Notes: generated by a model not told the origin, from the letters alone. Shown: positions 5,509-28,318, counted from the first letter of the stretch. The stretch: 64,000 nt of DNA from a virus (IMGVR_UViG_3300032770_000019:8495-72494), one strand, 5' to 3'. Numbers and translations: made by a program.

Positions 5509-5591
5509 CCCTGAACGTCCTGCTCAACGGGTACCTAACCGCCGTAAAAAGCGAGATGCGTCACGAACCCCGTTGAGCAGGGCCTTGAGGG
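5509..5591 (+). promoter_or_regulatory. Conserved RNA stem, copy 1 (RNase III-site-like)
   Basis: CCCTGAACGTCCTGCTCAACGGG...CCCGTTGAGCAGGGCCTTGAGGG directly before SD AAAGGAG. Confidence 0.6.
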
Positions 5592-5690
5592 AAAGGAGAT
5601 GACGATGGACGACGACGATCCTAACGAAGAGGCGTACGTGAGCGAACTGTTCGCGGACGCGACACAAGAGGTACGCGATCAAGATCCGGC

Positions 5691-5719
5691 TTGACATGCC
5701 ATTCCGGGCATGATAGCCT
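5691..5719 (+). promoter_or_regulatory. SigA-type promoter
   Basis: TTGACA-17-TAGCCT. Confidence 0.6.
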
Positions 5720-5765
5720 GGTCATTACATAGGGAAGCAACCGCAACAGAGGAGTGGATTTAGAA

Positions 5766-6494
5766 ATGGCTACTGTGTCCCAGCAGCTGCGCGCCAAGAA
5801 GCCGGCTGCCGCTAAGCCCGCAGCCAAGCCAGTCGCTGCGAAGCCTCAGGCGGCTAAGCCAAAGGCACCGGCGCCTAAGCCTCCGCAGCCGACCGAGCCT
5901 GAGGTCGAGAAGAAGGAAGAGCTGACCCCGGAGCAGAAGGCCGCAATCAAGGAGGAGAAGAAGAAGGCAGCTTTCGCGAAGCTGAAGGCCCGTGCCGAGG
6001 AGAAGAAGAAGGTCAAGGTCGCCGCCCGCAAGGAAGCGATGAAGTCCCTCAAGGGCGAGCTCGAGGTCGGTCAGCACGTCTTCATGACGCGCGCCAGCTA
6101 TTACGGCTGCGAGGCCGTAGTGGAGGGCTTCGAGGAGGTCCGGGGTCGTAACCTGGTCGTGCTCAAGGTCGTCAGCACCAAGAAGGGTCGCGCCCTCGAG
6201 GACGACAAGACCTATATCCGCAAGGTGTCGCCGAAGTTCGTTCAGGACGAGCGCCCGACCGAGCCTTACGTGAAGCGCCGGGCCACCGCCGCCTCCGATG
6301 AGGCCGAAGAGGAGGCACCGGAGGAGCTCGAAATCGAGGAGGAAGAGGCCGAGCTCGAGGACGAGGAAGGCGAAGAGGAGTCCGAGGAGGAGGAAGAGTC
6401 TGAGGAGGAGGAGGAGGAAGAGGCCACCGAGGACGACTCCGAATCGGAGGAGGACGAGGACTCCGACGAAGAGGATGAAGAGAGCTGGGGCTAA
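5766..6494 (+). CDS. Bipolar protein: K/A/P-rich N-terminus, KOW-like core, very acidic C-terminal tail
   Basis: AAKP repeats, LEVGQHVFMTRASYYGCEAVV, about 60 C-terminal residues mostly E/D; own promoter and downstream hairpin. Confidence 0.75.
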   Translation: MATVSQQLRAKKPAAAKPAAKPVAAKPQAAKPKAPAPKPPQPTEPEVEKKEELTPEQKAAIKEEKKKAAFAKLKARAEEKKKVKVAARKEAMKSLKGELEVGQHVFMTRASYYGCEAVVEGFEEVRGRNLVVLKVVSTKKGRALEDDKTYIRKVSPKFVQDERPTEPYVKRRATAASDEAEEEAPEELEIEEEEAELEDEEGEEESEEEEESEEEEEEEATEDDSESEEDEDSDEEDEESWG

Positions 6495-6503
6495 TCCCAA
6501 GCA

Positions 6504-6542
6504 TCCGGGTGCCGTTACCGATACGCTCTGACGGCACCCGGA
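6504..6542 (+). terminator. Hairpin after the acidic protein gene
   Basis: TCCGGGTGCCGTTA / TGACGGCACCCGGA inverted repeat. Confidence 0.55.
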
Positions 6543-6702
6543 CTTCAACGTCCGGCTGGAACCGACGTTACTCGCAGGCAAAGGTGTCGAACCGGCGATC
6601 CGGAATACGAGCAGCCAGTCCTAGGCGGTCTGTCAGTCCGGGTAGGTAGACACAGCTAGCTGTAGCGGTGGTCAGTGGAGGCGTTTCAGCCGGGCCTTGA
6701 GG
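6543..6702 (+). promoter_or_regulatory. Conserved RNA stem, copy 2 (large insert)
   Basis: CTTCAACGTCCGGCTGGAAC...GTTTCAGCCGGGCCTTGAGG directly before SD AAAGGAGG. Confidence 0.55.
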
Positions 6703-7284
6703 AAAAGGAGGGACATGCCCCGTTACAGTTACAACAAGTGGTTCGGCTTCAATACCGAATTCACGGAGGCGGATCGCGTTCCGCCTCCGGGTGTACCGAA
6801 AATGGCTAAAAAGCATCCGAAGAAACGCAAGCGAAAGAAGGCGAAATGAACGCCGGAGAAATCGCCTCGCTGGTAACTGCCGTAGTGGCGTGCCTCGGAG
6901 CACTTACCGCGTACCTCAAGTCACGTACGGCTACTAAGCAAGCAGCTGCCACCAAAGCCCAGCTTGACGCGCATGTCGATTCTTATCGTCACCTTTCCAA
7001 GTAACGTCACCGCCCGTCGCTTCGTGGACGCTAGGAAAGGCACAACGTTATGTCGAATGGTACTACCGAGAACGCAGATGCAACGCCGAGTCAATGGAAT
7101 AGCGGGAAGCCTCCGACACACGGTTACTACCTCGGTGCCTGGCGACACGGAGACAGATGGTTCGTTAGCGAGCTATGGTACAACCCCGATAGCGTCTACA
7201 CCGGCTGGTGGACCGGAAGAGGCTATCTTGAAGAACGCTCAGATCCACGAAGCGTACAAGTACAGTACTGGATGCCGATGCCCG

Positions 7285-8622
7285 ATGCACCTAAGTCCTG
7301 AGCAAATCAAAGCAGCGAACCTCTTTCTCGAGCACGAAACGTTTGCTTGCTATGATCCGCAAGGAGCTGGGAAAACGGCAGTAGCAATTAACGCTGCTGT
7401 TGAACACGGTCAGTTTCCCGTTCTAATTGTACTTCCAGCTCACTTGATACCGCAATGGCGAATGCAGCTTGAACTCTGGGGCGTACCAGCGGAGGAGATC
7501 GCCACTGCCCCGAGAGGTTGCGGTCCTGCGATTAGGCACGCCGCACTACAAAGTGACTGTGCTTTCACGCTTGTATCGTACAACACCCTTGCAAGCTACG
7601 ACTATATGCCGGAGTGCTTGGACCCTCGCTGGAAAGCATACGTATTTGACGAGAGCCATCGAATGGGGCGCAACGGTAAAGGGCAAGCGTGGCATCATGC
7701 TAAGCTGCTGCGTACTAAGTCACGGACAAAGCACACGCACACTCCGATTTGGCTGCTTTCGGGCACACCCCTAGTAAAGAACGCAGTCGACGTTTGGCCA
7801 CTACTATTCCTCGTTAACAAGTACAAGTACGGTAACCGCGAAAGGTTTGCTCGTGATACCTGCCATACCTACCAAGGCGACTACAGCCTGCAAATCGGTG
7901 CTGTCAAAGATACCCATGCCTTTCATCAGCTGCTTGGCCAGCATAGCATTCGTAGATCATGGCGTGAAATTCCGAGCCTCGCTGGACTGTCGAGAAGGGA
8001 CGTTAACCTTCCACTGGAGCTTGCTCCGAAGGATCTCAACCGACACCGTGAAATCAAAAGGAACTACCGAGATCCGGAGACCGGAGAGCCACTGAATAGC
8101 TCGGCTCAGATGATTCACGCGCTGAGGCGTTTGACCATATCAGCCAAGGTGGAGGCGGTGACAGAATTCGTACAGGACCACCCAGGAAGGTTGTTGCTCC
8201 TCGCCTGGTACAGGTCAAGCGCCCATTCCCTGGCCACCGCGGTTTCGCGTGTCAACAAAGTACCGATTGCCTACGTTGACGGGGGCACACCGGAAAGACA
8301 ACGCGAACATGCGTTTAGCACGTACAGTAGCGATTCGAATTGCATATTCGTTGGTACAATCGGCTCGATGGCGGAAGGGTGGGACGGCTTCCAGCGGATC
8401 GGGCATCAGGTACTATTTGCGGAGCAGCATTACCTTTCAGCAACGAACGAACAGGCCGTTGCGCGCGTCCTTCGTCGCGGTCAATCGCAGCCAGTTCTGG
8501 TATACTGGATGTATGCACTTAAAAGCTTTGATATGCGCGTACGTCGCGTTGCTAAGAAACGCCAAGCTGATATCGACGAAGCGCTAGGAGAGTTCTTGAA
8601 GGAGGAAGAATGGCGCCAGTAA
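7285..8622 (+). CDS. SNF2-family helicase
   Basis: DPQGAGKT, VFDESH, LLSGTP, MAEGWD and EQAVARVLRRGQ motifs. Start re-set to ATG 7285 because 7050..7301 is a plausible gene in another frame. Confidence 0.85.
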   Translation: MHLSPEQIKAANLFLEHETFACYDPQGAGKTAVAINAAVEHGQFPVLIVLPAHLIPQWRMQLELWGVPAEEIATAPRGCGPAIRHAALQSDCAFTLVSYNTLASYDYMPECLDPRWKAYVFDESHRMGRNGKGQAWHHAKLLRTKSRTKHTHTPIWLLSGTPLVKNAVDVWPLLFLVNKYKYGNRERFARDTCHTYQGDYSLQIGAVKDTHAFHQLLGQHSIRRSWREIPSLAGLSRRDVNLPLELAPKDLNRHREIKRNYRDPETGEPLNSSAQMIHALRRLTISAKVEAVTEFVQDHPGRLLLLAWYRSSAHSLATAVSRVNKVPIAYVDGGTPERQREHAFSTYSSDSNCIFVGTIGSMAEGWDGFQRIGHQVLFAEQHYLSATNEQAVARVLRRGQSQPVLVYWMYALKSFDMRVRRVAKKRQADIDEALGEFLKEEEWRQ

Positions 8623-9393
8623 AGTACTCGATAGGGCGTCTCACGGACCTGCTTACCGATGCTGCGAAAACGAAATACGCGAAGGACCTGCTATGCGCTC
8701 GGGACGTTTGCGATAAGCTAGCAGAAGCAGTACCGCCACCTAAGGAAGGTCGAAGCGCAACATACAATACGCTAGCCTTGCTAATGTCAGTGAACGTCAT
8801 CATCACACCAGACAGTCCGCCGGGTCACTTTCGTCTCGTTAGACACGACAACTGCAAGGTGAACGACCCGTGGACGGAAATCGATAGTACCGACGGAGGC
8901 GGAATTGTCTACGTAGCTCCTCCAGCTTCGCCACCGCCACTTACCGTTTCGCATTCTGAATGTTCGATTCTAGAAGAAGGAGTACTCGAATGAGCACCGA
9001 GGAAATCGAAGCGCATAACCACCTACCGGTAGCTCCGTGCAAGCCGGACTGCCCGGGATACGCAAGCGTTCAAGTAGAGAAAGCAACTTCAGCACTCGTT
9101 ACCGTTGAGTACGAGTTTGCCGCCGTCCAGCGGGAGGCGGATGAACGGTTGCCTATCGGCTGGTGCAACGCATGCGTCGCCAACGCTAAGAACGCTCAGG
9201 ACCAAGGACTACCGGCGGATGCGATTCACGCAGGCGTTACAACAATCGCTCAGATTCAGAAGCTTAAGCTTCCCGATCAGCCGATGCCCGTAACGGTCGT
9301 TATCCCACTTCCTTCGTGCCTATACCACATTGGTATCGATAAGTCCGGCTCGCGAAGGATTCAGGTAGCTGACGGTCCACTACCTCCTCGCGT

Positions 9394-9423
9394 TTGACAG
9401 GCCTGTAGGTAATCGGGTATACT
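9394..9423 (+). promoter_or_regulatory. Promoter with conserved spacer
   Basis: TTGACAGGCCTGTAGGTAATCGGGTATACT; GTG 9430 follows 6 nt later. Confidence 0.75.
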
Positions 9424-9632
9424 TTAAGGGTGCGATGGTTTAAGCGAAAGAAAAAGACAACGGGCGGTCTTGGCAATACGCTGCGCACCCTCGAAACACC
9501 GTCCGAGTACGACCAGCGAGCAGCTTTCTACGGTCGTTGCAAGAAGTGTAACGAGCCGCTCGATATATGCTTGACCGCTGACCCTCGTAGGGACACCTAT
9601 TATCTCTACTGTCCTAGTTGCGGGAAACGCCA

Positions 9633-9932
9633 ATGAACCCGGTAGATACGTTTCGCAGGAACATGCGCTATTATCGATTGAAGCGCGGCTGGACGTTCCA
9701 GGAGCTATCTCACTACTCAGGAGTGTCGGACTCCGTCCTAGCAAAGTTCGAGCGCTCACGATCTCGTGGACTGTCGCTTAGATCCGCTATAGAAATAGCT
9801 AGGTCACTTGAGGTGACAATGGACGATATGCTACGGGTTCAGGTAATACAAGAAAGCGAGATAGAAGATATGGAATACGAAATACGCTCACGATCCTCCC
9901 GCGCAGGAGCACTAAATCGGAGATCCGAATGA
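9633..9932 (+). CDS. XRE-family HTH regulator
   Basis: MRYYRLKRGWTFQELSHYSGVSDSVLAKFER...IARSLEVTMDDM. Confidence 0.85.
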   Translation: MNPVDTFRRNMRYYRLKRGWTFQELSHYSGVSDSVLAKFERSRSRGLSLRSAIEIARSLEVTMDDMLRVQVIQESEIEDMEYEIRSRSSRAGALNRRSE

Positions 9933-11152
9933 AGGAACTAGTATTTCCGCCTAACTGGAAGCAGCGACCGGTTCCTAAGGAACGCAAAGGTAAGTTCCTA
10001 GTAAGCGTAAACGAGCTTAACTCTTTCCAGCGGTGCCGCCGTGCGTGGGATATCACGTCACCGTCACGCCAGTCATTGCACCGTATCGGTATGCCCGTCC
10101 CTGCGTTGCACATTGGTAGTGCCGTTCACTATTCAATGGCTTCGCTGGCTCTCGGTGGCGATCCGGTAGCTGCCGCGTTGATCTTCTACGAGGATAGCAA
10201 GGAGCAGCTGGAAAAGAAGTATATCGAAACGGTCGGCGCACCCCTTAGTAGTCAAGAACTAGCGATATTGGCGGAACAACGTGACCAAGTCGTTGATATG
10301 GTTCGAGCTTATACTGCTCGCTACGGAAAGCGTAACCCTACTAAACCTTATAAGATTGTTGCGCCAGAAGTCACGTTCGAGATACCGCTCGTTCCAGATT
10401 ACGGCATATACCTCGTTGGGACTATTGACCGCGTGCATGTCGATGCTTACGGTAATCCTATACCTGGCGAGGTAAAGACCTACAAAGCCAAGCCGAATAA
10501 GACCGGCTGGCGCTATAACCATCAAGTGTACGGTTACGCAGCTGCGCTACAGGTGCTAACGCGTAAGAGGGTACCGTTGGCGCTATACGATGGAATACGC
10601 AAGAAAGCACCCGAGCCTCCTAGGATATTGAAAGATGGAACGGTATCTACAGCTTGGATTGATACTACATACGATCTTTACCGAGCTACGCTCCTCGAAG
10701 TGTATAACGGTGATAAAAGTGTACTTGTTCACCCGGCGTACGCTCCGCTATTGCAGCGTCTGTGGAACCGTGATCACTCCGCAGACAGTGCGTTCCATAC
10801 GAGGTTCCGGGTGCCGATATCACAACACGCGATCGAACTATGGTGGGACCAAGCTCAGGTACTAGCAATGGAGATGGCGCATTCTCCGATAATCTACCCG
10901 AACTTCGACTGGCAGGGTTGTCCGTTGTGTCGGGTACGCGATCTATGCCACGCCATTCAAGGAGGAGAACTTCAAGCTCAAGACGTAATTCGTAGCGAAT
11001 TTACTAGGGGGCTAACACATACACGACAGGCAAAGCACGTAGCAACGCCGCAGAATGTCAAAAGCATCGATGACCTCATCGCGTTCGCTGGCGAAATGTC
11101 ACCGGACAGACCGTTCGAGATATCCACGGAGGCAGAAAGTGACCCGAGTTGA
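9929..11152 (+). CDS. PD-(D/E)XK Cas4/RecB-like exonuclease
   Basis: SVNELNSFQRCRR, GSAVH, GTIDRV...GEVKT, QVYGY, C-terminal CPLCRVRDLC. Confidence 0.85.
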   Translation: MKELVFPPNWKQRPVPKERKGKFLVSVNELNSFQRCRRAWDITSPSRQSLHRIGMPVPALHIGSAVHYSMASLALGGDPVAAALIFYEDSKEQLEKKYIETVGAPLSSQELAILAEQRDQVVDMVRAYTARYGKRNPTKPYKIVAPEVTFEIPLVPDYGIYLVGTIDRVHVDAYGNPIPGEVKTYKAKPNKTGWRYNHQVYGYAAALQVLTRKRVPLALYDGIRKKAPEPPRILKDGTVSTAWIDTTYDLYRATLLEVYNGDKSVLVHPAYAPLLQRLWNRDHSADSAFHTRFRVPISQHAIELWWDQAQVLAMEMAHSPIIYPNFDWQGCPLCRVRDLCHAIQGGELQAQDVIRSEFTRGLTHTRQAKHVATPQNVKSIDDLIAFAGEMSPDRPFEISTEAESDPS

Positions 11153-11361
11153 ACGCAGCTGCAGCGACACACGCTAGGACTTCGCATGTAACGATTAAGG
11201 AGCTCAGAAGGCGAATTCGCAGCGAGCAGACACTTCGCTATCGCTCACTACGTGAGCTTAAAGATAGCGGACTTTCCTATCGCGCCATTTCAAAGCTCAC
11301 GGGTATTCCGAGGAGCACCGTCGCGTACGTACTAAACAACCCGGAGGAGTGGTACCAATGA
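11149..11361 (+). CDS. Small HTH DNA-binding protein
   Basis: GLSYRAISKLTGIPRSTVAYVL. Confidence 0.7.
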   Translation: MNAAAATHARTSHVTIKELRRRIRSEQTLRYRSLRELKDSGLSYRAISKLTGIPRSTVAYVLNNPEEWYQ

Positions 11362-13370: not shown

Positions 13371-13371
13371 A

Positions 13372-13408: not shown

Positions 13409-13411
13409 CTA

Positions 13412-13441
13412 TTGACAGGCCTGTAGCAAATCGGATAGACT
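13412..13441 (+). promoter_or_regulatory. Promoter with conserved spacer
   Basis: TTGACAGGCCTGTAGCAAATCGGATAGACT. Confidence 0.75.
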
Positions 13442-16061
13442 TAAATCAGGAGGTGACCGCAGTGGACATCGAAGAGCTCAAGAAGCTGTGGCAGAAGCTC
13501 GGCGGCAGTATGAATCAGGACGTTCCCGAAGCGGTATTCGAGGCAGCCATCGAATTCGGCGATAACGAAGGCTGGGACATAGTCTTCGATGAAAAGATGG
13601 ACCCGCTCGATCTCGGCTACCAGGACTGGAATCCGCAGATGCTAGCGGTCGTTCTCGTTCTGCTGCATATCAGTCGCGGTGCGGTTCCGAACTTCGTAAT
13701 GGAAGCTCCGTTCTAATGGCGCGTATCGTTATTACCGTAACCGATCAGGAAGCCGATGAGATTCGCGAGTGGCTGAAAACTCACGAGAAGCTTACTCTGC
13801 GCCCTATAGGCGGTAGCAGGCTATGGCACGTACTCGGTGCTGAGATAGAAGAGAAGGTGCGAGAATGGCCAGGCTAGTACTACTGAGCTTCAAAGACAAC
13901 GCTGAGGCTGAACGCCTAGCTCAGAACTTGACGGAGAACGAAGGCGATATCAGTACCGTCATTCCCTGTACGGCTCATATCGAATGGGTTATCGCTCAGC
14001 CGACAAAAGCGTGTCAGTGCGGGCTGTCTGAGCAGCCGGTAAAACGCTCGCGTAGGCGTAAAGGACTTAACCGTACCAGCGCAGATGCGTTCTCGAAAGG
14101 TAGGCGTTTCGGCTGGTGGTGCCATGCTACGTGCCACCGCGTTTCGCGAGGCGTGCTGGAACGCTTTGTCGCCAATCTGACTAACGGCAACTACGACCTG
14201 CTACCGGAAATCCTCGACGATCCCGAACGCGTGCCCAACGACATGCGTCGCTTCCACGACTTCATGCCGAACATTCGGAGCAAGCGATGAAAGTTATTCG
14301 CGTAACCGTCATCGTTGACAAACAAGGACATATTAGTATCGAGGCGTACGGTCCGCTAAAGGAAGGCGGACTTACGGTACTCCTAGAGGAAGCCGCCAAG
14401 ATAGCTAAGGAAGCAGGAAAGTAGGTGATCACTACTCTTCAAGATCTTATCCTGCAACTAGTAGATCTATCGAATAGCGGTCAGAAGAACGTAACCGTAA
14501 ACGTATCCGGACGCTGGGTCCAAATACGCAGCGTAACCGTAGATCCGAACGGGTTCGGTGCGTTTATTAACACGGAGGAGTAATGGATACTCACGAGCTA
14601 GTCGTAGCATTCGTGGCAGTGCGTTTCATCGCAGAGGCGGAGGTATATCCCGTCTGGGAAGCGTATAACCAAATGGTCCTAGGAAGTAGCTTTCCCGATG
14701 AAAAGCTGCCTCCCACTCCAAGTCGCACCGAGCTCACGGAAGTAGCAACTAAGCTAATGAAGCAGGCCCTTGTAGCCTTGCCCGAGGACGAAAAGGCGGA
14801 AGTAATACGTCTACTTAAAGAGCGACTGTGAATACCGCACTAGGTCCGGTAGCGTGGCTAAACCGACGCGAGCCGTATACGATACTTAAGCGACGGCTAT
14901 CACAAATGCGTCAGCTCGAGTTGCTACAGGAAATACTCGAGCTGAATCCGGGCTGCTTTAGCGCAGCTAGACTTTCACGTGACGGTCTGATAGCGGAGAT
15001 TCTTAACTATTACGACCTGCTAACTATCGAGTGCGTCGATTGTCCCGTATGCTGGGCTAGCGGGAGAACGCCTTGCTTTCCGAGCATTACGTACATTAAA
15101 GGCGTTAAGAACAGCGTTTACCCTACGCAAACGGAGCTCTATCGTCCGTACCATACCCAGCGGAGGACGCGTGCAATTAGAAAGGTCGGACTGCGTTAGT
15201 GGCTAAGATAAGCGAACCACGAATAGTCCTAATTGCGCACTGTAAGGACCCGGACTGCGACTGGAGCGAAGCACTAGAGGACACTCCAGTCGGTCACGGC
15301 CTAGAGCACTGTAACGCGTTTGCACACCCAGTAACGGAAATGCTAATCAGTGCGTATGATATGCTACCGGATGACTCGGACAAGCTGCATAAGGAGGCAC
15401 GTAATGGATCGGCTAGAGCAGGCGGAAAAAGCACTCAAGGACCTGCGTAGCGCAATCCGTGAAGGACACGAGATACTGCAAGGCTTCAAGGAAGCAATAC
15501 GTGAAGCACGCGAGTTCGAAAAGCATCAGCTTAGTCAGGACACGATAAAGCAGAAAATCGAAGATAAGCTAATAGCTGGACTAAAGGAGTTCGAGGAAGC
15601 ACTAGCTAAGGCTATTAGCGATGCAACGCAAGCTACCTACGATCGCTTTGACCTACTAGCGTCGATAATGCTAGGTGAAGACGCTGAAAGTGCTAAGAAA
15701 GGAATGCCGCCTATCGAGGAGCTAATCAAGCGCTATCGTGCTACCGCCGCGCGCCCGCCAGTAGCTGTTCTTACCGACAACGACCTAAAAGTCGGACTAG
15801 AGAAGATGCGAAAGGAACGCAATGCAAGCTCAAGACCTAAACTCCGAGATTTGCCTAGCACTTCACGAGGGCCCGGTACTACAGACGTTCAATAGCAATA
15901 TTACCTCCGTAGGTACGGTTTTCTCCGAACCGGGTCAAGCTTGGTTCGAGATACAAACGAACGAAGGTACTAAGCAGGTAATCGTACGCGATGCCGTAGG
16001 CCAGCCGGAAGCAACATAGACATTTGTCATACAAATCATCAGATACCCCCATGGGTATCGC

Positions 16062-16558: not shown

Positions 16559-16561
16559 GTC

Positions 16562-16591
16562 TTGACAGGCCTATAAAGTGTCTGATATGCT
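16562..16591 (+). promoter_or_regulatory. Promoter of the primase operon
   Basis: TTGACAGGCCTATAAAGTGTCTGATATGCT (18-nt spacer). Confidence 0.65.
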
Positions 16592-16713
16592 AGCCCTTTA
16601 AGGGTTAGGTAGGGAGAAAGGGCCTGGGGAGGTGACGACCCAAGCCCTTTCTCAGGAGGTCCGGCGACCAGACCGGAAGCTCCTTCCAACCTCCCGTGCC
16701 GGCAGGAGGTCAT

Positions 16714-17568
16714 ATGGATAGGCTATCAGGCTCCAAAAGCCCTGTCAAGTTCGACCTTTTCGTTGCGCAACAGCTAATTGACAGTGGTACTCCGCTGGTT
16801 ATCGCTAAGTCGATGCCGAACGGAAAAGTCAATCCTATCGAGAAGGCATGGCAGGACAAAACGCCTGACCAGCGGACACTCGACCAATGGTTGAGCGGTG
16901 TCGGTACCGTTCTGGGTGCCGTCATGGGTCGTACGTACGATGTCTTCGATTTCGACCCGCAAAATGGCTGTTCACTAGCCGAGTTTCTCGATTATTACGC
17001 CTCGCTTGGCAATAAGTCTCTTTGTGTGCAAGCCATAACCGCTACACCATCGGGCGGTCACCATCTTTGGGTACGTACCCTACAAAAGCCAAAGCGCAAT
17101 CCTATTACTCGCGGAGTTGACTATCAAGGTCAACGCACCTGGGTAGCCATTCCGCCTTCACGCAAGCCGAGCAAAGTCACCGGCGAAGTTTTGCCATACA
17201 AGTGGCTAGAGTACAATCCAGATGGAGGAACCGGCAATGACTCTGGCCTTGCTATTTGGACAGCGCTGTCGCAATGGCCGAACCATTCTCCGCTACCATC
17301 GAAACGCGAAGCGCAGCACCGCGAGTCCGAGAAAGTCACACGTTCCGACGTACGCGAATACCGAAAGGACGGACTACCTCCGAACTCGGATCACGACAAC
17401 CTACTAAGCCATATCACCTTCCTCCTATGCCTATGGGGAGCAAACGAGAATGTCGCACTCGAAATATGGCAAGACATCGTGGACAATACCGAACTCAAAG
17501 GACGCGAATACGAAGCGGAGCGTGACTTCTACCGTCACTGGAATGGAGCGTTGCGGAAGCTAAGATGA
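16714..17568 (+). CDS. Bifunctional DNA primase/polymerase (Prim-Pol)
   Basis: VFDFDPQNG, TPSGGHHLW, GVDYQG...VAIPPS motifs. Confidence 0.85.
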   Translation: MDRLSGSKSPVKFDLFVAQQLIDSGTPLVIAKSMPNGKVNPIEKAWQDKTPDQRTLDQWLSGVGTVLGAVMGRTYDVFDFDPQNGCSLAEFLDYYASLGNKSLCVQAITATPSGGHHLWVRTLQKPKRNPITRGVDYQGQRTWVAIPPSRKPSKVTGEVLPYKWLEYNPDGGTGNDSGLAIWTALSQWPNHSPLPSKREAQHRESEKVTRSDVREYRKDGLPPNSDHDNLLSHITFLLCLWGANENVALEIWQDIVDNTELKGREYEAERDFYRHWNGALRKLR

Positions 17569-18926
17569 GCAAAGAAGCTGATGAGCTCCTCAAGGACCGT
17601 AGCACTATCGGTGATTACACGCAATCCGAATACGCGGATCGCTTTACAGAAGAATACGGTGATCGCTTCCGTTACATACCTCCAGAGGACCGATGGCTAA
17701 ACTATAGCGACGGACGATGGCGCGAGGATCAATACGACGCAGCATTCCACTTCGCGGAAAAAATGTGTCGTCAGATTCTCGAAGACACTCCGAAAATGTC
17801 TAGCAGCGGAACAAAGACAAATCCGTACCGCGAAGTAGCACGCTCACGTTGCAGTGCAGCCAGTATCGCAGCGGTATGCCGAATAGCACGCACGAAGCGA
17901 CCGATCGTAACAACCCGCGACAAATTCGACGCTAATCCGTACTTGCTCAACACACCAAACGGCACATACGACCTGCTAACTGGCGAGATACTCCCGCACG
18001 ACTCGAAGCACATGATTACGCACATAACCAGCGGAGTATACTCCCCGGATATCGAAGCACCCGAAGACTTTACGGAATACTTCGATGAGGTACAAACGCT
18101 TGAATGGCAAGAACAGCTATGGCGAGCGGTTGGCTGCTCACTTCTCGGAGTGTTCGGTGAATACGCCTTCCTCCACACCGGTAGTGGCGGTAACGGTAAA
18201 TCCACCTTTCTCGATCTCGTAGGTGAAGCGTTGGGCGACTACGCTGATGAGGCCAGCTGGAAGGTCCTCCACAAAATCGGTGAAGAAGCTCACGAAACCA
18301 TTCTCGAAGACCTTCGCGGAAAACGCGTATCGATCATTCATATGGGCTCGCGAAGTCTCTCACCCGAGCAACTGCGGCTACTCGTATCGGAATCGACCGT
18401 AAAGGCGCGTGGCATGCGCGAAAACATGCACACGTTTCGCGCATCGCATACCTTCCACGTATCAATGAACAATCCGCCTCCGATGAACGACCTTGACGCC
18501 AGTGTTCGGAGGCGATTGCTGATTGTACCGTGGAACGTAACTGTCCGTGAGCCCGACCCGATGCTAAAAGAGCGCCTACGAATAACCGCCAAAGACTATG
18601 TGCTAACGCAGCTGATCGATGGCTACCAGCGGTGGTCGCTTGCGCAATTCCCCCGTGATCCTACCGAAGCGCAATTCAGCAAAAACCCGATATATGCTTT
18701 CGGTACTACGTGCTGCGAATTCGACCCGACCTACAGCGAACTAACCGAAAATCTCTATGCAGCTGCTCAGCGATGGGCAGAGGACACCGGTGAAAAGCTA
18801 CCATCTCCGGCGATCTTCGGACGGACTCTTAGCCGCACCTTTAACCTTTCCAGCTATCGTACTAGCGGCTCCCCAAGAAGGAAAGGTTGGTCGGGTATTC
18901 GGCTTATTACCGACTACCATGTCTAA
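17565..18926 (+). CDS. D5/P4-family SF3 helicase
   Basis: FDANPYLLNTPNGTYDL, GSGGNGKST, LRGKR, RRRLLIVPW. Confidence 0.9.
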   Translation: MSKEADELLKDRSTIGDYTQSEYADRFTEEYGDRFRYIPPEDRWLNYSDGRWREDQYDAAFHFAEKMCRQILEDTPKMSSSGTKTNPYREVARSRCSAASIAAVCRIARTKRPIVTTRDKFDANPYLLNTPNGTYDLLTGEILPHDSKHMITHITSGVYSPDIEAPEDFTEYFDEVQTLEWQEQLWRAVGCSLLGVFGEYAFLHTGSGGNGKSTFLDLVGEALGDYADEASWKVLHKIGEEAHETILEDLRGKRVSIIHMGSRSLSPEQLRLLVSESTVKARGMRENMHTFRASHTFHVSMNNPPPMNDLDASVRRRLLIVPWNVTVREPDPMLKERLRITAKDYVLTQLIDGYQRWSLAQFPRDPTEAQFSKNPIYAFGTTCCEFDPTYSELTENLYAAAQRWAEDTGEKLPSPAIFGRTLSRTFNLSSYRTSGSPRRKGWSGIRLITDYHV

Positions 18927-18935
18927 CATAGGCTA

Positions 18936-19186
18936 GGACACTATCTTTTATAAGATACTGAGGCGATAGGACATGATAAGGACATGGTACCTAAACACCT
19001 TCTACTGCAAGGACACGATAGGACACGTAAATACACCACATATACCATGTACCTTACATGCACCCGTAAGGTTACATGTATGAATCCCAACGTTCTCAAC
19101 TTTCGTGTCCTATCGTGTCCTTGCAGTAGACGGTGCTTAGGATCGTATCCAGCGTACGCATACCGACCGTGTCCAAAACCATGTCC
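18936..19186. repeat. Iteron/inverted-repeat array, probable replication origin
   Basis: 37-bp inverted repeat (18991-19027 / 19104-19140, 2 mismatches); five GGACA on the left and four TGTCC on the right; directly after the helicase gene. Confidence 0.7.
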
Positions 19187-19366
19187 TGGCCTACGAAGGA
19201 GATAGCCTAGGTAATGCTAAAATGGCTATGGCGCCAAATACGCCTAACCTTTCACGACGTTCGCAAGAACTTCGACGCTAATGGTACGTGCAACTACTGC
19301 GGTAGCAAATGGCTACAATGCGAAACATGCAAAGGCTGGTTCTACGGAACGCACCATTGCCCGCCC

Positions 19367-19396
19367 TTGACAACCACTAAGGAAATCGGATAGGCT
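19367..19396 (+). promoter_or_regulatory. SigA-type promoter
   Basis: TTGACA-18-TAGGCT with AAATCGGA before the -10 box. Confidence 0.6.
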
Positions 19397-19434
19397 TGTC
19401 CTGCATAGCAATTCACCCCGCACTAGGGAGAGAC

Positions 19435-20417: not shown

Positions 20418-20423
20418 CAGAAC

Positions 20424-20489
20424 CCGAAAAGGCCCTCACGGGGGAACACCCGGTTGACCCCCGCACCGGGAATGTGAGGGCCTTTTCGG
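20424..20489 (+). terminator. Long hairpin terminator
   Basis: CCGAAAAGGCCCTCAC / GTGAGGGCCTTTTCGG perfect 16-bp stem. Confidence 0.7.
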
Positions 20490-20509
20490 TCGCTTAACCT
20501 AAAAATCTT

Positions 20510-20539
20510 TTGACAGGCCTGTAGCAAATCGGCTATACT
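20510..20539 (+). promoter_or_regulatory. Promoter with conserved spacer
   Basis: TTGACAGGCCTGTAGCAAATCGGCTATACT. Confidence 0.75.
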
Positions 20540-20700
20540 TGTAGACATGACAGGTGAGTCGCGACGCAGTATACTGCAGTATATCTGCGGGGAGGTATTC
20601 ACACCGTTTAGCGAGGTACAACCTGACCCCGTATGGGGTACTCGTGAGAGAGCGACTGGACGGACCTCCCCTGCCACCCTACTAAACGGAGGTGACAACG

Positions 20701-22727: not shown

Positions 22728-22902
22728 AGTACGCACACGCATTACTCTAGAATGCGATCATACATATTCGCATCCGGGACCGCCTAACGAAATCGAACGA
22801 GTTACTGAAGCGCATAAAGAACCGAAAGTACTATGTCCGACGTGCAGAGTGTCGCTGCGAATAGTAAACACGCAGATAGTAGTTAAAAAGAGGTGACCAG
22901 CA

Positions 22903-23724
22903 GTGGGTAGATATCAGGACACGATCGAGTTCCTCGAAGTCGATCGCATTCACGCCAATCCCGACAACCCGCGCAAGGAAGCCGGCGACGTAACCGACCT
23001 AGCTAACTCGATCGAAGAGATCGGCATGGTACAACCGGTCTCCGTTCGTGGCGATAGCCGCTTCGGTACCGGTCACTACATTCTCGATTCGGGTCTCCGT
23101 CGCTGGACGGCAGCGAGACTAGCCGGTACCGCAAAGATACCCGCACGAATCTACATGATGTCTCCCGGTGAGGACCCCGTAGAGCGTACCTTGCTCGTAG
23201 GCCTTTCCGACGTTCACAGCGAAGAGCTTAACCCGATGGAAAAGGCTTTCGCGTTTGCTCGCCTCCGTGACCTGACGGACCCGCCTCGTCCCCAAAACGA
23301 TATTGGTCGGCTGTGTGGTGTTACCGGAGCAACGGTGAGCTACTACCTGTCACTACTCGAGCTCTCGGTTAAGACGCAGGAAGCCGTAGCTAACGGCAGA
23401 GTTAGCGTAGAGCTTGCCGTTAAGTCAGTACGCCAGGAGCGAGCACGTAAGCGACGCAAGAAAGGGCATAAGCCGTCCACCGCTGGGTGGGAACCGGACG
23501 CGTTTAACGAAAAGCACTTCCTGTCACGCAAAGCCAAAGCGCTGTGCGACTCGCGAGGCCATTCGAATAGGCGTCGCCATGGCGGTGCATGTCACGGCTG
23601 CTGGGAGACCACTATCCGCATGGACGAGGCAAAGGTACAGCAGATCGCATGGCGTGAGCAAGGCTACGACCTTCCGTACCAAGACCCGGCAACTAACCTG
23701 CTAAGGAGTGCACTGACGCCATGA
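22903..23724 (+). CDS. ParB/Spo0J-like protein
   Basis: NPDNPRK..GDVTDLANSI...GMVQPV, G.RRW.AA, LNPMEKA.AF, then HTH. Confidence 0.85.
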   Translation: MGRYQDTIEFLEVDRIHANPDNPRKEAGDVTDLANSIEEIGMVQPVSVRGDSRFGTGHYILDSGLRRWTAARLAGTAKIPARIYMMSPGEDPVERTLLVGLSDVHSEELNPMEKAFAFARLRDLTDPPRPQNDIGRLCGVTGATVSYYLSLLELSVKTQEAVANGRVSVELAVKSVRQERARKRRKKGHKPSTAGWEPDAFNEKHFLSRKAKALCDSRGHSNRRRHGGACHGCWETTIRMDEAKVQQIAWREQGYDLPYQDPATNLLRSALTP

Positions 23725-24242
23725 CATTCGAATACCCAGCGGAAGTAGTGTTCGAACGCGCAGAAGCTCTCCGAACACTTGACAGGGAGCGCACAGCACT
23801 ACAAGCACACATCGCAGCGGACCACGAAGTGCTAAAGCGTATCTGGGACCTGCACCGTAGTGATAACTTCCTAAGTCCGTACTGTACCGGCTGCGAGCTC
23901 GCATGGCCTTGCCCGACCATTAGAGCGTTCGATGCCGCAATTTGACGAGCGCCATTGCCTTCAATATGCCCTCGTCTTCGGCTTGCAGTATCCGTACGCT
24001 CCGGCGGTATACGGTACCGAAGGTATGTCCGACCACGAAATCCTCCGCTGGCTACAAAGCCACTGCGATAACCTTTCGCCGTCCGCTCAGTACAAGCTTA
24101 AGCATAGCGATCTTAAAGGCGGTTCGCCGATACCTGGCGTCTCTATCGTACGACATAACAAGTGTATAGTCTGCGGTACGGATTCGCCCTGTGCGAAGCG
24201 AATCGTTGAACGTAGCAACTTCTGGAGGAAGGTGTTCGGTCG

Positions 24243-24518
24243 ATGAGAATAGATGAAGAAATCGGCGTAAGTTACCGGCAGATCGACTGGTGGACGCGTC
24301 AGGGGTATCTTAACGTAACCGGTAACGGCAGTGGGACGATGCGCAACTTCACCAACGTCGAAAAGGAAGTTGCTCGCTTGATGGGCCGCCTTGTTCGTGT
24401 CGGCTTTGCACCGAAGTCAGCCGCCGGTATTGCCCGTGTCGCAGTGGAGGAACATGCAAGTACCCTCGACCTGGGTGACAATATCGAATTGCAGATCGGT
24501 GCACCAGTTACTGTCTGA
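24243..24518 (+). CDS. MerR-like HTH protein
   Basis: GVSYRQIDWWTRQGYL...GSGTMRNF. Confidence 0.75.
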   Translation: MRIDEEIGVSYRQIDWWTRQGYLNVTGNGSGTMRNFTNVEKEVARLMGRLVRVGFAPKSAAGIARVAVEEHASTLDLGDNIELQIGAPVTV

Positions 24519-24672
24519 CCGGCTACACAAGTACTGCAGCTGTCAGACCGGGAGCGTGTCAATGTGACCAAGTCGGTGACAGGCACCGTCCTGAGCACCT
24601 GAGGAATTTTAGCCAAACCCGTAGGTGCTGTGGTTGGACCCATGATGACCCTGCCCCACCCAAAACTGAAAG

Positions 24673-24744
24673 GTACTACATTGACAGAGTTCGGCAAGGA
24701 ATTTCGCCGTACTACATTGACAGAGTTCGGCAAGGAATTTCGCC
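24673..24744 (+). repeat. Perfect 36-bp tandem duplication
   Basis: GTACTACATTGACAGAGTTCGGCAAGGAATTTCGCC occurs twice in tandem. Confidence 0.95.
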
Positions 24745-25295
24745 AGAGAATGCACGACGAGCAGGACGTTGACCAGCGGGCATTCCGTGATCTCGACATA
24801 CCGGTGTTTCGAACGGTACCGTATTCGGTTCCGCTGGGCAGGCGTTACGTATACGATAATCGCACACCGCAGATTAAGATGTCGGACTACAACTACGTGC
24901 CGGTGCTAAAGCAGCTAACGCAAGATAGCATACTCATCGAGTGGGACATTGCATATACGAAGGAAGCCCTAGAGACCTTTATCGAGTACTGCAAAGACCA
25001 GCCGCAAATCGTACACGTTGCACCGTATAAGCTTTACCCGATAAGCACTGCACTTGAAAAGCCGGTATGGGTACATCGTACCTATGAGCCAATGTGGTGG
25101 GTCAATCGCTACGACCCGTACTGTCAGCTATTCGGTTTCGGCTTTGTCTACCTCCCGCTGGATGCCGTTCACGCTTTCCTCGAAACTAAGCCTGAAAAGG
25201 CTGACGATGCACGATTCTCGAAATGGTACTGGGAAACGTACAAGACAGCAACACCGATACACTGGAACGTCGAAATCATTCACTTGCATTGGTAG
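24681..25295 (+). CDS. Possible GT-A fold glycosyltransferase
   Basis: ILIEWDI, FGFVYL, DDARFS and C-terminal HLH; motif order shared with 62612..63181. TTG start after GAAAGG. Confidence 0.45.
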   Translation: MTEFGKEFRRTTLTEFGKEFRQRMHDEQDVDQRAFRDLDIPVFRTVPYSVPLGRRYVYDNRTPQIKMSDYNYVPVLKQLTQDSILIEWDIAYTKEALETFIEYCKDQPQIVHVAPYKLYPISTALEKPVWVHRTYEPMWWVNRYDPYCQLFGFGFVYLPLDAVHAFLETKPEKADDARFSKWYWETYKTATPIHWNVEIIHLHW

Positions 25296-26037
25296 GAGCA
25301 GCTAATGTCGCCGGAGATGGAAAGCATCAGCAGAGTACGCTCGCTGGTTAGCTGGCTGCGGAAGACCGGAAAGCAACCGACCAGCTACCCGAAGCTTAGT
25401 GCGATGACCGAGACCGAAGTACGCGAAGCGAAGTACTTCGCCAGCGGAATCTATCCGATGCCTGTCCGCTGGACGCGTAGGCTTTTTGAGCTTGCAAGGC
25501 AGGACTAATTCTGCTAAACTCAAAGGGAGAGGTGACCCGATGGGAAAACGGTTTAGCGGTACGAAATCAGGTGGTTCACGAACTAGTATCGGCGTTGCGG
25601 TAACGCTTGATTACGCTGAAACGCGAGACATGCGTGAACGCCTACTGCACAAGCGAGGAGCCGGTATTGCGCCCGGACATCAGCCAAACGGCTTCCCGCA
25701 CTTCAGTAGCTCAAAGCACCACCGTTGCCTATGCCTCAATAGATGCTGTCTCGGACCGGCCGGCTGCATCTGCCCCGACTGTCCGTGTACTGTGCAAACG
25801 GTAGAAACGTGCTTCGCGTGCGGTGACCCAGCGACGAATCGCGTACAAGGCGAATGGCTATGTAGCCCCTGCAAGAAGGAGTTCGAAAGTGAATAGTAAA
25901 AATATCCCGATACTAATTCTTCCGAAGATTTCGGACGATCTAAATGCCGAACTCCCGGAAGCCGTCGCTGAGCTAATTCTACCTAACCGGGAGGTAAAAA
26001 ATGAGACACGTAAGACCGCCTTCGGGTCGGCAATCTG

Positions 26038-26904
26038 ATGACAACGCCACCGAGAGTAACAAAACCGAAGCCACCTGTAAAGTCGCCTTCCGAAGCGGCA
26101 CCGGAGAATGGTGCCAGTGCTGGTACTACTGCACCCGATACCACGTCCAGCTCAGCGGCCCCGTGGAGTCCGGTCAGTAAGGTCGCACACTTCCAAGGCC
26201 TCTCGCTGGCCTTGTTCGGTCCACCGGGGGTCGGTAAAACGACACTCCTGGCTACTGCACCGGACCTGCTTCTCGTTAACTTCGATCCGGACCTTACCTC
26301 GCTGCAAGATCGCGATGACGTAATGACGTGGCCCGGTGAAAAGCAAGGCGGTGTCGTAAAGAGCTGGCAGCAGATCAGTGCGTTTAGTGCGCAAATGCTA
26401 CGCAGAAAGCATCCGTTCAAGACGGTAGCGTTCGACACGATTAACGGTATGTACGACCTGGCATACCAGAACGTAACGGAAAGAGGCAGTCCGAACCGCG
26501 ATGGTAGGCAGATTTTCGGAGAGGCTAACGACCTGGTTCTCGGCATTGTCAAGGACTGGTGCATGGCAGCACGCGAGACCGGTATCAACGTTGTCTTCTC
26601 AGCGCACAGCGAAGAAAAGCAGGACGGAGAAAACGGTCCCCTTGTGCTTCGCATGTCTATCACGCCAGGTGTCGTCAAAGGCACTTACCAGCGGGTCAGC
26701 AATGTCGGCTGTCTGCTGGAGCTCCCGGGAGTCGGACGGCACCGTAAGCTGTACCTTCATAACACCGCAAAAATCGTCGCAAAGGTGCATCAGCCGAAAT
26801 CCGGACCGCAACTCCCGCTGGAAATCGTCGATCCCGACCTCGGCAAGATGATCGACCACATTAAAGGCGTCAAGCCATACCCGAAGCCGGAGGTAAAGAA
26901 GTGA
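26038..26904 (+). CDS. AAA_24/Sak4-like ATPase
   Basis: LFGPPGVGKTT, TVAFDTI, NVVFSAH. Confidence 0.85.
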   Translation: MTTPPRVTKPKPPVKSPSEAAPENGASAGTTAPDTTSSSAAPWSPVSKVAHFQGLSLALFGPPGVGKTTLLATAPDLLLVNFDPDLTSLQDRDDVMTWPGEKQGGVVKSWQQISAFSAQMLRRKHPFKTVAFDTINGMYDLAYQNVTERGSPNRDGRQIFGEANDLVLGIVKDWCMAARETGINVVFSAHSEEKQDGENGPLVLRMSITPGVVKGTYQRVSNVGCLLELPGVGRHRKLYLHNTAKIVAKVHQPKSGPQLPLEIVDPDLGKMIDHIKGVKPYPKPEVKK

Positions 26905-27100
26905 TTCTTAAGCTACTTCAACGCATTTCGCCACGCCCCTGTCAGCTCTGCGGACGGAAGTACGGCGTACGCCGTAACTACATAAGGCTATGGAACGGTA
27001 CGCGCTTTACTCTTTGCATCTCCTGCGTATACCGCACCGGCCTTGCTACCGTCATTGACGAAGTCAGTAGAAACATCGTCGCACGCTATCAGGACGCAGA

Positions 27101-27661
27101 ATGCCCTTCCTAATTGCAGCTATAGCCATACTCGTAATCGTAGCTGTCGTTCTCTACGTTCGTAAGCGTCCGGAGCCGTTTACGGGTATCAATCCCGCAA
27201 TGCTGGAGGAGAAGAACGCAGAGATAACTGAGCTGCGACAGCAGCTAGAACAAGCTAATCTTCGGACGTTTCGTATACAAGACGAAGCCGCACTCGCGCT
27301 GAAAGAAGAACGTCACCGCCTACAACTGGAATGGGCGGAGACAAAGCGAGCCGATCGAAAGGCGAGTAATGAACGCTCACGGTCCGCACTGGTTGCGAAA
27401 ATTGCGGAACATATGGCACCTTTCCTCCCCGGCTTCGCGTTCAATCCGAAAGACGCTAGACATATCGGAGAGCTCATTGACTTCATCGTATACGATGGCT
27501 TGGAAGATGGCGAAATACGCGAGGTGGTATTTCTAGAGGTAAAGACACGACGCACCGGTCGAGTATCGAACCCTCGCGAAAGGCTTCTTAAAGAAGCTAT
27601 CGATGCTGGAAGGGTTAGTTACCGGGTGTTCGTACCCGAAGTAATACGTAAGCAGTCTTGA
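27101..27661 (+). CDS. Holliday-junction-resolvase-like endonuclease with an N-terminal TM helix
   Basis: EHMAPFLPGF.FNPKDARHIG..IDFIVYDG...VVFLEVKT. Confidence 0.8.
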   Translation: MPFLIAAIAILVIVAVVLYVRKRPEPFTGINPAMLEEKNAEITELRQQLEQANLRTFRIQDEAALALKEERHRLQLEWAETKRADRKASNERSRSALVAKIAEHMAPFLPGFAFNPKDARHIGELIDFIVYDGLEDGEIREVVFLEVKTRRTGRVSNPRERLLKEAIDAGRVSYRVFVPEVIRKQS

Positions 27662-27687
27662 CACATTCGTAGTGGCTGATATATGCT
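27658..27687 (+). promoter_or_regulatory. SigA-type promoter
   Basis: TTGACA-18-TATGCT. Confidence 0.6.
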
Positions 27688-27736
27688 ATAGGTACGGGCA
27701 AATGACCCGCCCGACAAGGGTCAAAGGAGGATCCCC

Positions 27737-28168
27737 ATGCCGGTTACCGTTGACCTCACTGGCGTTACCGCCGGTGGACCGGAACCGTGGGAAGCCGGAA
27801 ACTACCCGGCTATCATCACGAAGGCGGAAATCAAGCCGTCAAGGAGCTCAGGAGAGGACGCGCTTTACCTCGACCTGGCAATGACCAAGGAAAGCGAGGA
27901 CGGAGAGGACCCCGAAGAGCGTACGCTCCGCTGGAATACGTCCATGCAGACTAAGCAGCTCGGGCGTTTCAAGCAGCTGCTTATCCGACTCGGATTCGAG
28001 TTCCCGGAGGAAGGAGCATTCGAGTTCGACGAGCAAGACCTGGTCGGTCAGGAGTGCGTGGCTAGGCTTACGCTAGAGCCGCACTATCGCGACCCGGAGC
28101 GTATGACGAACAAGGTAGCCGAAATTCTCGGCACCGACACCGATGGACAAGGAGACTGGGGCGGATGA
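27737..28168 (+). CDS. DUF669-like ssDNA-binding protein
   Basis: AGNYPAIITKAE, DLVGQEC.A, acidic tail ending in W; near the AAA_24 ATPase. Confidence 0.75.
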   Translation: MPVTVDLTGVTAGGPEPWEAGNYPAIITKAEIKPSRSSGEDALYLDLAMTKESEDGEDPEERTLRWNTSMQTKQLGRFKQLLIRLGFEFPEEGAFEFDEQDLVGQECVARLTLEPHYRDPERMTNKVAEILGTDTDGQGDWGG

Positions 28169-28255
28169 ACAGCGGTAGTAGCGGCAGTAACGTGGACGCG
28201 ATGTACACGGGCAACACGAATCCGTTCCTGGTGCGCGTGAAGGTTAGCTAACCTT

Positions 28256-28318
28256 CCTTGAACGTCCGGCTCAAACGGACCTTCCTGAGACATGCCCGTC
28301 TGAGCCGGACCTTGAGGG
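28256..28318 (+). promoter_or_regulatory. Conserved RNA stem, copy 3
   Basis: CCTTGAACGTCCGGCTCAAACGG...CCGTCTGAGCCGGACCTTGAGGG overlapping the SD of the next gene. Confidence 0.6.

Follow-up and report, generated by a model that had tools for sequence, protein, structure and literature searches.

Three hairpins between genes of an uncultured phage

We analyzed a 64,000-nucleotide (nt) stretch of DNA, here called the window (IMGVR_UViG_3300032770_000019, positions 8495 to 72494), that is part of a 72.5-kb assembly from an uncultured, siphovirus-type soil or wetland phage. Three hairpins of one family lie on its plus strand, at window positions 5509 to 5591 (copy 1), 6543 to 6702 (copy 2), and 28253 to 28321 (copy 3). 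An initial annotation had described these as paired arms around unrelated inserts, each stem abutting the next ribosome-binding site, and had proposed that they form a family of phage mRNA-processing or protein-binding elements. A motif search recovered both arms of each hairpin on the plus strand where the annotation had placed them. The left arm, AACGTCCKGCT, has four exact matches in all, at 5514, 6547, and 28261 on the plus strand and at 24760 on the minus strand. With up to one mismatch it has nine matches against 2.76 expected, a number that none of 100 shuffles reached. The right arm, AGCMGGRCCTTGAGG, matches exactly at 5576, 6688, and 28303. Allowing it up to two mismatches gives five matches against 0.36 expected (0 of 100 shuffles reached 5), and the two extra ones are left arms read on the minus strand. 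A fuzzy scan found no further two-arm copy anywhere in the 72,494-nt genome.

The pairing that had been claimed for the arms is correct. All window copies carry a C-C mismatch, there is a compensatory change between copies (T-A in copy 1, G-C in copies 2 and 3), and the inserts are unrelated and of unequal length, with 51, 130, and 31 nt between the arm motifs. Copies 1 and 3 also have a G.G mismatch two pairs below the C.C, likewise conserved, whereas copy 2 has a C-G pair at this position. Copies 1 and 3 fold at −43.3 and −42.2 kcal/mol, respectively, each with a z score of −5.0 and with none of 200 shuffles as stable; pairing in copy 3 reaches slightly beyond the limits first given for it. 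Folded together with an adjacent hairpin, copy 2 has a z score of −2.7, and 2 of 200 shuffles were as good.

All three copies are intergenic, as the annotation had stated, and in each of them a Shine-Dalgarno (SD) motif is followed by a start codon 13 to 16 nt past the 3′ core. Copy 1 (5′ core UGAACG at 5512 to 5517, 3′ core CCUUGA at 5583 to 5588) has both mismatches and scores 72.4 bits with the covariance model R1 described below. The TGA stop codon (5505 to 5507) of the open reading frame (ORF) at 5181 to 5507 lies 1 nt ahead of its base. Downstream, at 5594 to 5607, are the SD motif AGGAG (5594 to 5598) and ATG codons at 5599 and 5605, which open an acidic ORF of ~30 codons ending at 5694. 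Copy 2, with its large insert, has the cores UCAACG (6545 to 6550) and CCUUGA (6695 to 6700) and scores 23.9 bits (E = 0.0002). Directly 5′ of it is a separate, perfect, GC-rich hairpin without a U-tract (6504 to 6542; z = −4.75), which starts 10 nt after the TAA of the gene at 5766 to 6494; the same tandem arrangement is found in three related records (G004, G005, and G007). At 6707 to 6717, copy 2 is followed by the SD motif GGAGG (6707 to 6711) and the ATG (6715) of a 44-codon ORF, and then by a 52-codon ORF and an SNF2-type helicase gene (6964 to 8622). Copy 3 (UGAACG at 28259 to 28264, CCUUGA at 28310 to 28315; 76.1 bits) carries its SD motif, GGAG, inside the 3′ strand of its own lower stem (28316 to 28321). 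The downstream gene (28329 to 28721) has a TTG start and encodes a RuvC-like resolvase, followed by QueD, QueE, FolE, and QueC. Immediately 5′ of copy 3 is the TAA stop (28249 to 28251) of a short ORF that overlaps the end of an SSB-like gene (27737 to 28168). This 28-codon ORF (28165 to 28251), which overlaps the SSB-like stop codon by ATGA, could be a genuine small gene or the displaced C terminus of the SSB-like protein. In the window promoter scan, the gaps from copies 2 and 3 to their respective downstream genes were free of promoter-like sites, and these copies therefore lie inside operons.

A covarying hairpin family with two conserved mismatches

We collected the family by two-arm pattern scans with variable gaps and then by running R1, a covariance model built from eight copies, on whole records. 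Family counts refer to 25 distinct sense-strand copies; an alignment in which antisense matches and duplicated loci were mixed (A3) was left out of them. The copies come from at least 12 uncultured phage contigs and four metagenome fragments, and the proteins that these phages share with the window genome have only 20 to 54% identity. A covariance-model scan of related phages, which the annotation had proposed as a check, thus finds the element, with its covariation, in distantly related phages. By R1, there are three sense copies each in the window genome (G000), in G003, in G015, and in G007, where two stand in tandem and a partial 20-bit match is also present. Two sense copies each are found in G004 and G005 (as a tandem pair), in G008 and G009, and in G001, a fragment that duplicates G003. 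Single sense copies occur in G002, G006, G010, G011, and G019, as well as in G014, a fragment that duplicates one G003 copy. The related contigs G012, G013, G016, and G018 (100% complete) and the fragment G020 gave no R1 match at E ≤ 0.01, and G017 has only a divergent 19-bit variant.

From the outside in, the hairpin consists of a variable lower stem, an invariant core, a covarying upper stem, and a variable loop. Anchored at the core, the 25 copies form the three core-adjacent pairs of the lower stem in 20, 22, and 24 cases. The core itself reads as a U-A pair (24/25), a G.G mismatch (23/25, with C-G in the other two), two A-U pairs (25/25 each), a C.C mismatch (24/25, with A.C in one), and a G-C pair (25/25). 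An extra 26th copy, G004b, has U.U at the C.C position. Above the core, pairing at positions 5 to 14 of the upper stem is kept in 249 of 250 cells, and more than one pair type is seen at eight of the ten positions (e.g., U.G 14, U-A 10, and G-C 1 at one position; U-A 18, G-C 6, and C-G 1 at another). The interior varies from 5 to 120 nt, measured between the printed 12-nt flanks. Among the first eight copies, pairing holds in 95.2% of 166 cells, and both partners vary at 8 of the 21 pairs; none of 500 shuffles reached the observed covariation, and slid registers paired only 29 to 51% of cells. A coaxial helix of 20 to 28 pairs was traced in 18 of the 25 copies, and in the other seven the stem walker stopped early on flanking pairs. 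The core is thus identical although the proteins common to these phages have diverged widely. Two apical-loop motifs, CCTAGG and GATAGG, recur inconsistently in a few copies. Comparison by eye with the consensus sequences of the hairpin ribozyme, the kink-turn, and loop E showed a mismatch in the pairing pattern, and these resemblances were set aside.

In assembled genomes, each of the 19 copies is carried on the strand of its flanking ORFs. By script, 20 of the 25 copies have the end of an ORF of 40 codons or more no farther than 14 nt from the core (two of these ORFs being in doubtful frames), and in most copies the stop codon is 3 to 14 nt from the core. A plausible start codon lies 9 to 16 nt from the 3′ core in 9 of 25 copies by script, or in 11 when two copies identified by eye (G015a and G019a) are added. 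In other copies it lies 20 to 88 nt away, and in six the script found no start. The SD motif falls within the lower stem in copy 3, G003a, G007c, G015b, and G019a, and overall ~40% of copies adjoin or include the next ribosome-binding site. The abutting SD motif of the initial annotation thus describes all three window copies and only about 9 to 11 of the 25 family members; the link to the upstream stop codon is tighter and more general than the link to the next SD motif. No U-tract is present: over the 20 nt that follow the core, T runs are no longer than 2 in 24 copies and reach 4 in one. One location recurs, separated from the downstream helicase module by a few small genes (copy 2 of the window genome, G002, G009a, and G015a), and elsewhere the neighboring ORFs are mostly singletons.

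Outside this group of phages we found no credible relative. Copy 3 had no match at E ≤ 10 among 50,697 GenBank phage records. A two-arm scan of species-representative bacterial genomes (185,579 according to the tool description) returned one locus, which we judged to be chance, and 151 sampled genomes of one bacterial phylum returned none, with part of the candidates scored per genome. The sole metagenome-assembled genome with a pattern match had no R1 match. Rfam 15 had no match in the 64-kb window at gathering thresholds, and permissive Rfam scans at the three sites gave only far-subthreshold hits, which at copy 3 were miRNA-precursor hairpins of a generic kind, scoring 22 bits at best where the gathering threshold is 100. 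The annotation had named a match to a known mobile repeat as an outcome that would count against it, and no mobile-repeat, Rfam, or bacterial-genome-repeat match was found. The hairpins are a genuine family of structured elements, and one that is apparently undescribed.

Several other sequences came up during these searches. Two-arm matches at loci L122, L127, L128, L130, L131, L150, L151, L152, L154, and L156, and at L161 to L164, L166, and L167, were discarded as chance because they form no stem, as were relaxed-core candidates outside the listed copies, including G003 5692 to 5797. The right arm alone, used as a probe, matched at least 118 loci that we took to be chance; the one inspected, L045, is a collagen-like repeat. 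In the window, a possible degenerate relative lies on the plus strand at 3406 to 3492, a hairpin located 5 nt past the stop that ends the ORF at 2966 to 3400 (z = −3.8). It has family-like arms (TGAA..CC.GCTCAGG) but Watson-Crick pairs at both mismatch positions, and its R1 score is not significant (13.3 bits; E = 0.19). A 51-nt direct repeat, 71% identical, covers part of this hairpin (3409 to 3459) and a second site at 35888 to 35938; the repeats stand at the 3′ ends of two apparently paralogous ORFs (2966 to 3400 and 35401 to 35958). Each repeat copy forms a hairpin, the first intergenic and family-like without the mismatches, the second inside a coding region. Record G012, which lacks the canonical element, has a post-stop hairpin (L208, 11070 to 11155) that shares the upper stem (CGTCCCGCTCG / CGAGCGGGAC). 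Its core differs in having an asymmetric loop, and a strong TTGACT-N17-TATAAT promoter-like site follows it directly.

The phage genome around the hairpins

The assembly is circular, as indicated by ends that overlap by ~127 nt, and its G+C content is 54 to 55%. Its plus-strand arm encodes an SNF2-type helicase, a PD-(D/E)XK nuclease, PrimPol, a D5-type helicase, a RecD-like helicase, and a ParB-like protein, as well as Sak4, an SSB-like protein, a RuvC-like resolvase, QueD, QueE, FolE, QueC, and a UDG-PolA fusion. Structural and lysis genes occupy the minus-strand arm. The phage appears lytic. No tyrosine integrase scored above the cutoff in the genome (Phage_integrase, 12.1 bits versus a cutoff of 27.1, with two internal stops), and no tRNA or tmRNA was found. 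The lysis proteins contain NlpC/P60, LysM plus an Rpf-type transglycosylase-like domain, and an Rv2525c-like domain, and because of these domains the host may, on weak grounds, be taken as Gram positive and probably actinobacterial. The closest GenBank phages have PolA identities of ~26% or below. When window positions 5000 to 9000 were compared with GenBank phages, no nucleotide relative was found apart from a low-complexity match in Erwinia phages. A look-up of RNA runs for positions 4000 to 9000 of the window listed none with this sequence.

Promoter-like sites of the form TTGACA-N18-TAnnCT punctuate the plus-strand arm. A 34-nt promoter-like family has five copies (TTGACAGGCCTGTAG...ATCGG.TA.ACT; 9391 to 9424, 13409 to 13442, 16559 to 16592, 19364 to 19397, and 20507 to 20540) in which the spacer is conserved along with the −35 and −10 hexamers. 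The conserved spacer suggests a phage-specific promoter class or an operator that overlaps the promoter. The gene between copies 1 and 2 (5766 to 6494) has its own promoter-like site (TTGACA-N17-TAGCCT, 5691 to 5719). Its product matches no family; the N-terminal half is rich in Lys, Ala, and Pro, and the C-terminal tail is extremely acidic and rich in Glu and Asp. A near-perfect inverted repeat at 19000 to 19136 has ~27 contiguous pairs, GGACACG twice per arm, and 45% G+C, and it folds at −73.3 kcal/mol (z = −13.5). We consider it a candidate replication origin because it lies just downstream of the D5-type primase-helicase gene (17565 to 18926). An exact 36-nt tandem duplication containing TTGACA is found at 24673 to 24744, within the ORF at 24630 to 25295. 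On the minus strand, a 60-nt periodic repeat (61135 to 62030), corresponding to 20-residue repeats, covers ~900 nt of the gene at 60912 to 62612, whose 566-amino-acid tail-region product is probably a beta-helical fiber or spike.

Possible readers and roles of the hairpin

Several observations bear on whether the hairpins act as RNA or as DNA. R1 scores 72 to 76 bits on the plus strand versus 33 to 37 bits on the minus strand. At upper-stem position 6, U.G occurs in 14 of the 25 copies and C.A in none; on the opposite strand, this U.G would be an A.C mismatch. By our own count over the 25 copies, the upper stem contains 24 G.U and 4 A.C combinations. The plus-strand fold is the more stable one in 18 of 25 copies. 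Together with the orientation of the copies and the adaptation of lower stems to the SD motif, this strand evidence favors sense-strand RNA and is compatible with plus-strand single-stranded DNA.

We infer that a double-strand-specific factor most probably reads the element as an intercistronic mRNA hairpin. Our tentative preference, which we hold at somewhat below an even chance, is that a host RNase III-type enzyme recognizes it, possibly with coupling to translation. Under such a scheme, the hairpins would be cis-acting parts of polycistronic early and replication-gene mRNAs, each beginning a few nucleotides past one stop codon and ending before, or in some copies overlapping, the next ribosome-binding site. 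A double-strand-specific endonuclease of the host, of the RNase III type, would recognize the helix, and the G.G and C.C mismatches would position or restrict the cut. The upstream message would keep a protective 3′ hairpin, and the downstream message would gain a 5′ end just ahead of its ribosome-binding site. The same hairpin may also couple downstream initiation to upstream translation, because the stop codon adjoins the base of the stem and a terminating ribosome would have to melt the lower stem and core. Bacterial RNase III substrates are known to need at least about two helical turns, and the family presents irregular helices of ~20 bp or longer, between cistrons and on the sense strand of polycistronic mRNA, as do sites of the T7 and SP82 type. 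No RNase III or double-stranded RNA-binding domain is encoded in the five family genomes searched, so the nuclease would be the host's. The role suggested in the initial annotation is partly supported: the covarying stems are real and widely conserved, and their intercistronic position, gene-strand orientation, and 20- to 28-pair helix fit processing or protein binding; the SD adjacency is the part that did not generalize.

Comparison with known elements is instructive. Intercistronic processing hairpins are textbook material for phage T7, whose RNase III sites (R0.3 to R18.5) are irregular hairpins of about two turns, often just before ribosome-binding sites; these sites are alike in sequence, have larger asymmetric internal loops, and contain nonpaired positions that shape cleavage. 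The likeness to T7 lies in intercistronic, irregular hairpins of about two turns with unpaired positions. Unlike in T7, the hairpins described here have two single mismatches, G.G and C.C, split by two A-U pairs, and apical inserts that reach at least 120 nt. Sites for Bs-RNase III reportedly occur in the early mRNA of phage SP82, in work by Panganiban and Whiteley from 1983 and by Mitra and Bechhofer from 1994. A further source describes B. subtilis RNase III as a narrow-specificity enzyme with targets in phage SP82 (PMC4838370). The SP82 sites, as phage hairpins that such an enzyme of a Gram-positive host cuts, are the best precedent for sequence-conserved phage processing stems. Phage SPO1 (132,562 nt), the relative of SP82 that was searched, gave no R1 match at E ≤ 1.

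Nearest in anatomy are the extended start-associated sequences (ESAS) of cluster K phages (Pope et al. 2011). These are intergenic, in one orientation, just upstream of start codons, and in the nonstructural half of an actinophage genome, and they are without known function (PMC3203893; PMC12699233). They are described there as imperfect 17-nt inverted repeats with spacers mostly of 4 to 13 bp, linked to a 13-nt start-associated sequence (SAS) at the start codon (PMC3203893), and their authors saw little support for an mRNA hairpin (PMC3203893; PMC12699233). Unlike the ESAS so described, the hairpins here have 5 to 120 nt or more between the arms and covary strongly. By the features that define cluster K ESAS they fall outside that group. 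The 13-nt SAS motif is not enriched in the window (one match with two mismatches versus 1.3 expected), and R1 found no credible match in the cluster K phage Anaya, where the best score was 18 bits on a palindromic hairpin and the whole record gave 11 bits (E = 0.78). The Correia or nemis elements of Neisseria are inverted-repeat elements transcribed into hairpins that RNase III cleaves; they are high-copy mobile chromosomal elements with terminal repeats and target duplications, and they affect flanking genes. They share with our hairpins conserved inverted-repeat arms, variable interiors, and long stems. Unlike them, the phage element has one to four copies per phage, no duplications, a conserved part that is internal, and no match in the bacterial genomes searched.

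A number of observations weigh against cleavage by a host RNase III-type enzyme or against action as sense-strand RNA. RNase III is not known to require a fixed sequence of this length, and an invariant core with ~17 biased nucleotides per arm looks more like the site of a sequence-specific binder. Control of downstream translation cannot be the universal role, because a start codon is found within 16 nt in only about 9 to 11 of the 25 copies. Over whole walked stems, the excess of G.U over A.C is only 37 to 13, and these G.U events are not independent, since 14 of them come from one column. The minus strand folds more stably in 7 of 25 copies; copy 3 itself folds at −42.2 kcal/mol on the plus strand and −44.9 on the minus strand, and energy does not separate the strands of the window copies. 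Finally, related contigs have mosaic junctions at the cores, a pattern that also fits a recombination role at the DNA level.

The hairpin could instead be an operator for a sequence-specific RNA-binding protein of the phage or host that controls the stability or translation of a neighboring cistron without obligatory cleavage. We regard this as rather unlikely, and we extend the same judgment to a variant in which the hairpin alone enforces translational coupling because a terminating ribosome has to open it. An invariant noncanonical core inside a covarying helix is typical of protein recognition sites, and both the stop codon 3 to 14 nt from the core in most copies and the SD motif in or beside the lower stem in ~40% of them would suit such control. 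A candidate binder is a putative zinc-binding protein, P0001 (13865 to 14290), a basic core protein of 141 amino acids that 12 of the 13 other genomes compared within the clade also encode (G006 lacks it). With invariant Cys50, Cys90, R3, A15, P46, R81, G83, and W84, its signature resembles that of a zinc knuckle. Neither sequence nor fold searches gave an informative match for it, however: no Pfam or PHROG family, an E value of 0.28 in a PDB sequence search, and no Atlas match. Two structure models had predicted local distance difference test (pLDDT) scores of 59.5 (first) and 73.7 (second), with no Foldseek match at E ≤ 0.001 and a best VIA-align Z score of 3.6, confined to a half-ferredoxin-like N terminus. 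Moreover, the distribution of the element is matched by no protein family, since every family found in all seven near-complete element-bearing genomes, P0001 included, is also found in four or five of the five element-less ones. The downstream genes are not conserved either, so this is no classic autoregulatory operator. A transcriptional signal, which we consider improbable, would be either a terminator or attenuator without a U-tract, placed at gene ends, or a put/nut-type cis-acting antitermination RNA that modifies RNA polymerase. It would account for hairpins that start directly after stop codons, for one to four copies per genome that often cluster near the start of the conserved helicase and replication module, and for promoter-like sites that follow copy 1 (TTGACA-N17-TAGCCT, ~100 nt past it) and the L208 variant hairpin. 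Phage phiC31 provides a case of a U-less terminator. Such terminators have been proposed for actinobacteria (PMC3993855), the type of host at which the lysis domains hint, but the title of the same paper states that mycobacterial RNA polymerase requires a U-tract (PMC3993855), which the family lacks in that 24 of 25 copies have no T run longer than 2. The terminator scan, which looked for canonical intrinsic terminators, listed none of the three window sites. With no promoter-like site after copies 2 and 3, efficient termination there would silence the helicase and the Que and PolA genes. Terminators also have no need of an invariant mismatch core, and put/nut elements are read at loops or bulges near promoters, whereas the loops here are fully variable.

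At the DNA level, the element might be a hairpin or cruciform in single-stranded DNA that serves priming, nicking, or recombination, a linker for module exchange, or a small mobile inverted-repeat element, and for any of these we see a slim chance. Mosaic junctions do coincide with the cores. G019 and G015 share 82 to 87% identity in a downstream stretch that begins 2 nt ahead of the 3′ core, and G019 and L125 share 74% identity in an upstream stretch that ends 2 nt beyond the 5′ core. The flanking genes occur in four combinations (A-X, A-Y, B-X, and C-Y). The flanking ORFs are mostly singletons, the element is patchy in the clade (absent from G012, G013, G016, and G018 at the threshold given above), G.T pairs are tolerated in single-stranded DNA too, and the phage encodes Sak4, SSB, RuvC, and PD-(D/E)XK recombination proteins. 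This mosaic pattern fits a role as a recombination joint or a side effect, and gene boundaries are common mosaic junctions anyway. The terminal repeats, target duplications, and many dispersed copies that characterize miniature inverted-repeat mobile elements are all missing: the sequences that flank the core are complementary to one another and are not direct repeats, the conserved core sits within the stem, unlike the terminal repeats of inverted-repeat transposons, and genomes hold only one to four copies, with no real match in the bacterial genome scans. An integron attC-like site does not fit, either by eye against the attC core consensus or in the integrase search, which found no Phage_integrase above the cutoff. 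A plain recombination linker would need no covarying stem, and the element is without exception on the gene strand, with a stop before it and a start after it, and its lower stems have adapted to pair with the SD motif.

A more novel proposal is also doubtful in our estimation. The G.G / AA-UU / C.C core and the biased upper stem may be what an undescribed factor, binding or cutting RNA in a sequence-specific manner, recognizes; this factor would be either shared by the hosts or a core protein of this deep, uncultured phage clade with actinobacterial-type lysis domains. Such a factor would link the termination of translation to the fate of the next message, and the arms would double as a junction for the exchange of gene modules, because the two conserved arms travel with the flanking genes.

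Processing hairpins are, to our knowledge, almost unexplored in phages of soil Gram-positive bacteria. Whichever factor reads the family, a core held invariant while phage proteins diverged to 20 to 54% identity implies a precise reader, and a 70-nt RNA with two diagnostic mismatches offers a handle for finding it. The element also provides a handle for annotating operons in this uncultured phage clade and for asking whether conserved intergenic hairpins double as recombination joints in phage mosaicism. If the reader is an ordinary RNase III, the hairpins would constitute a clean new class of substrate for which nature has supplied the covariation data.

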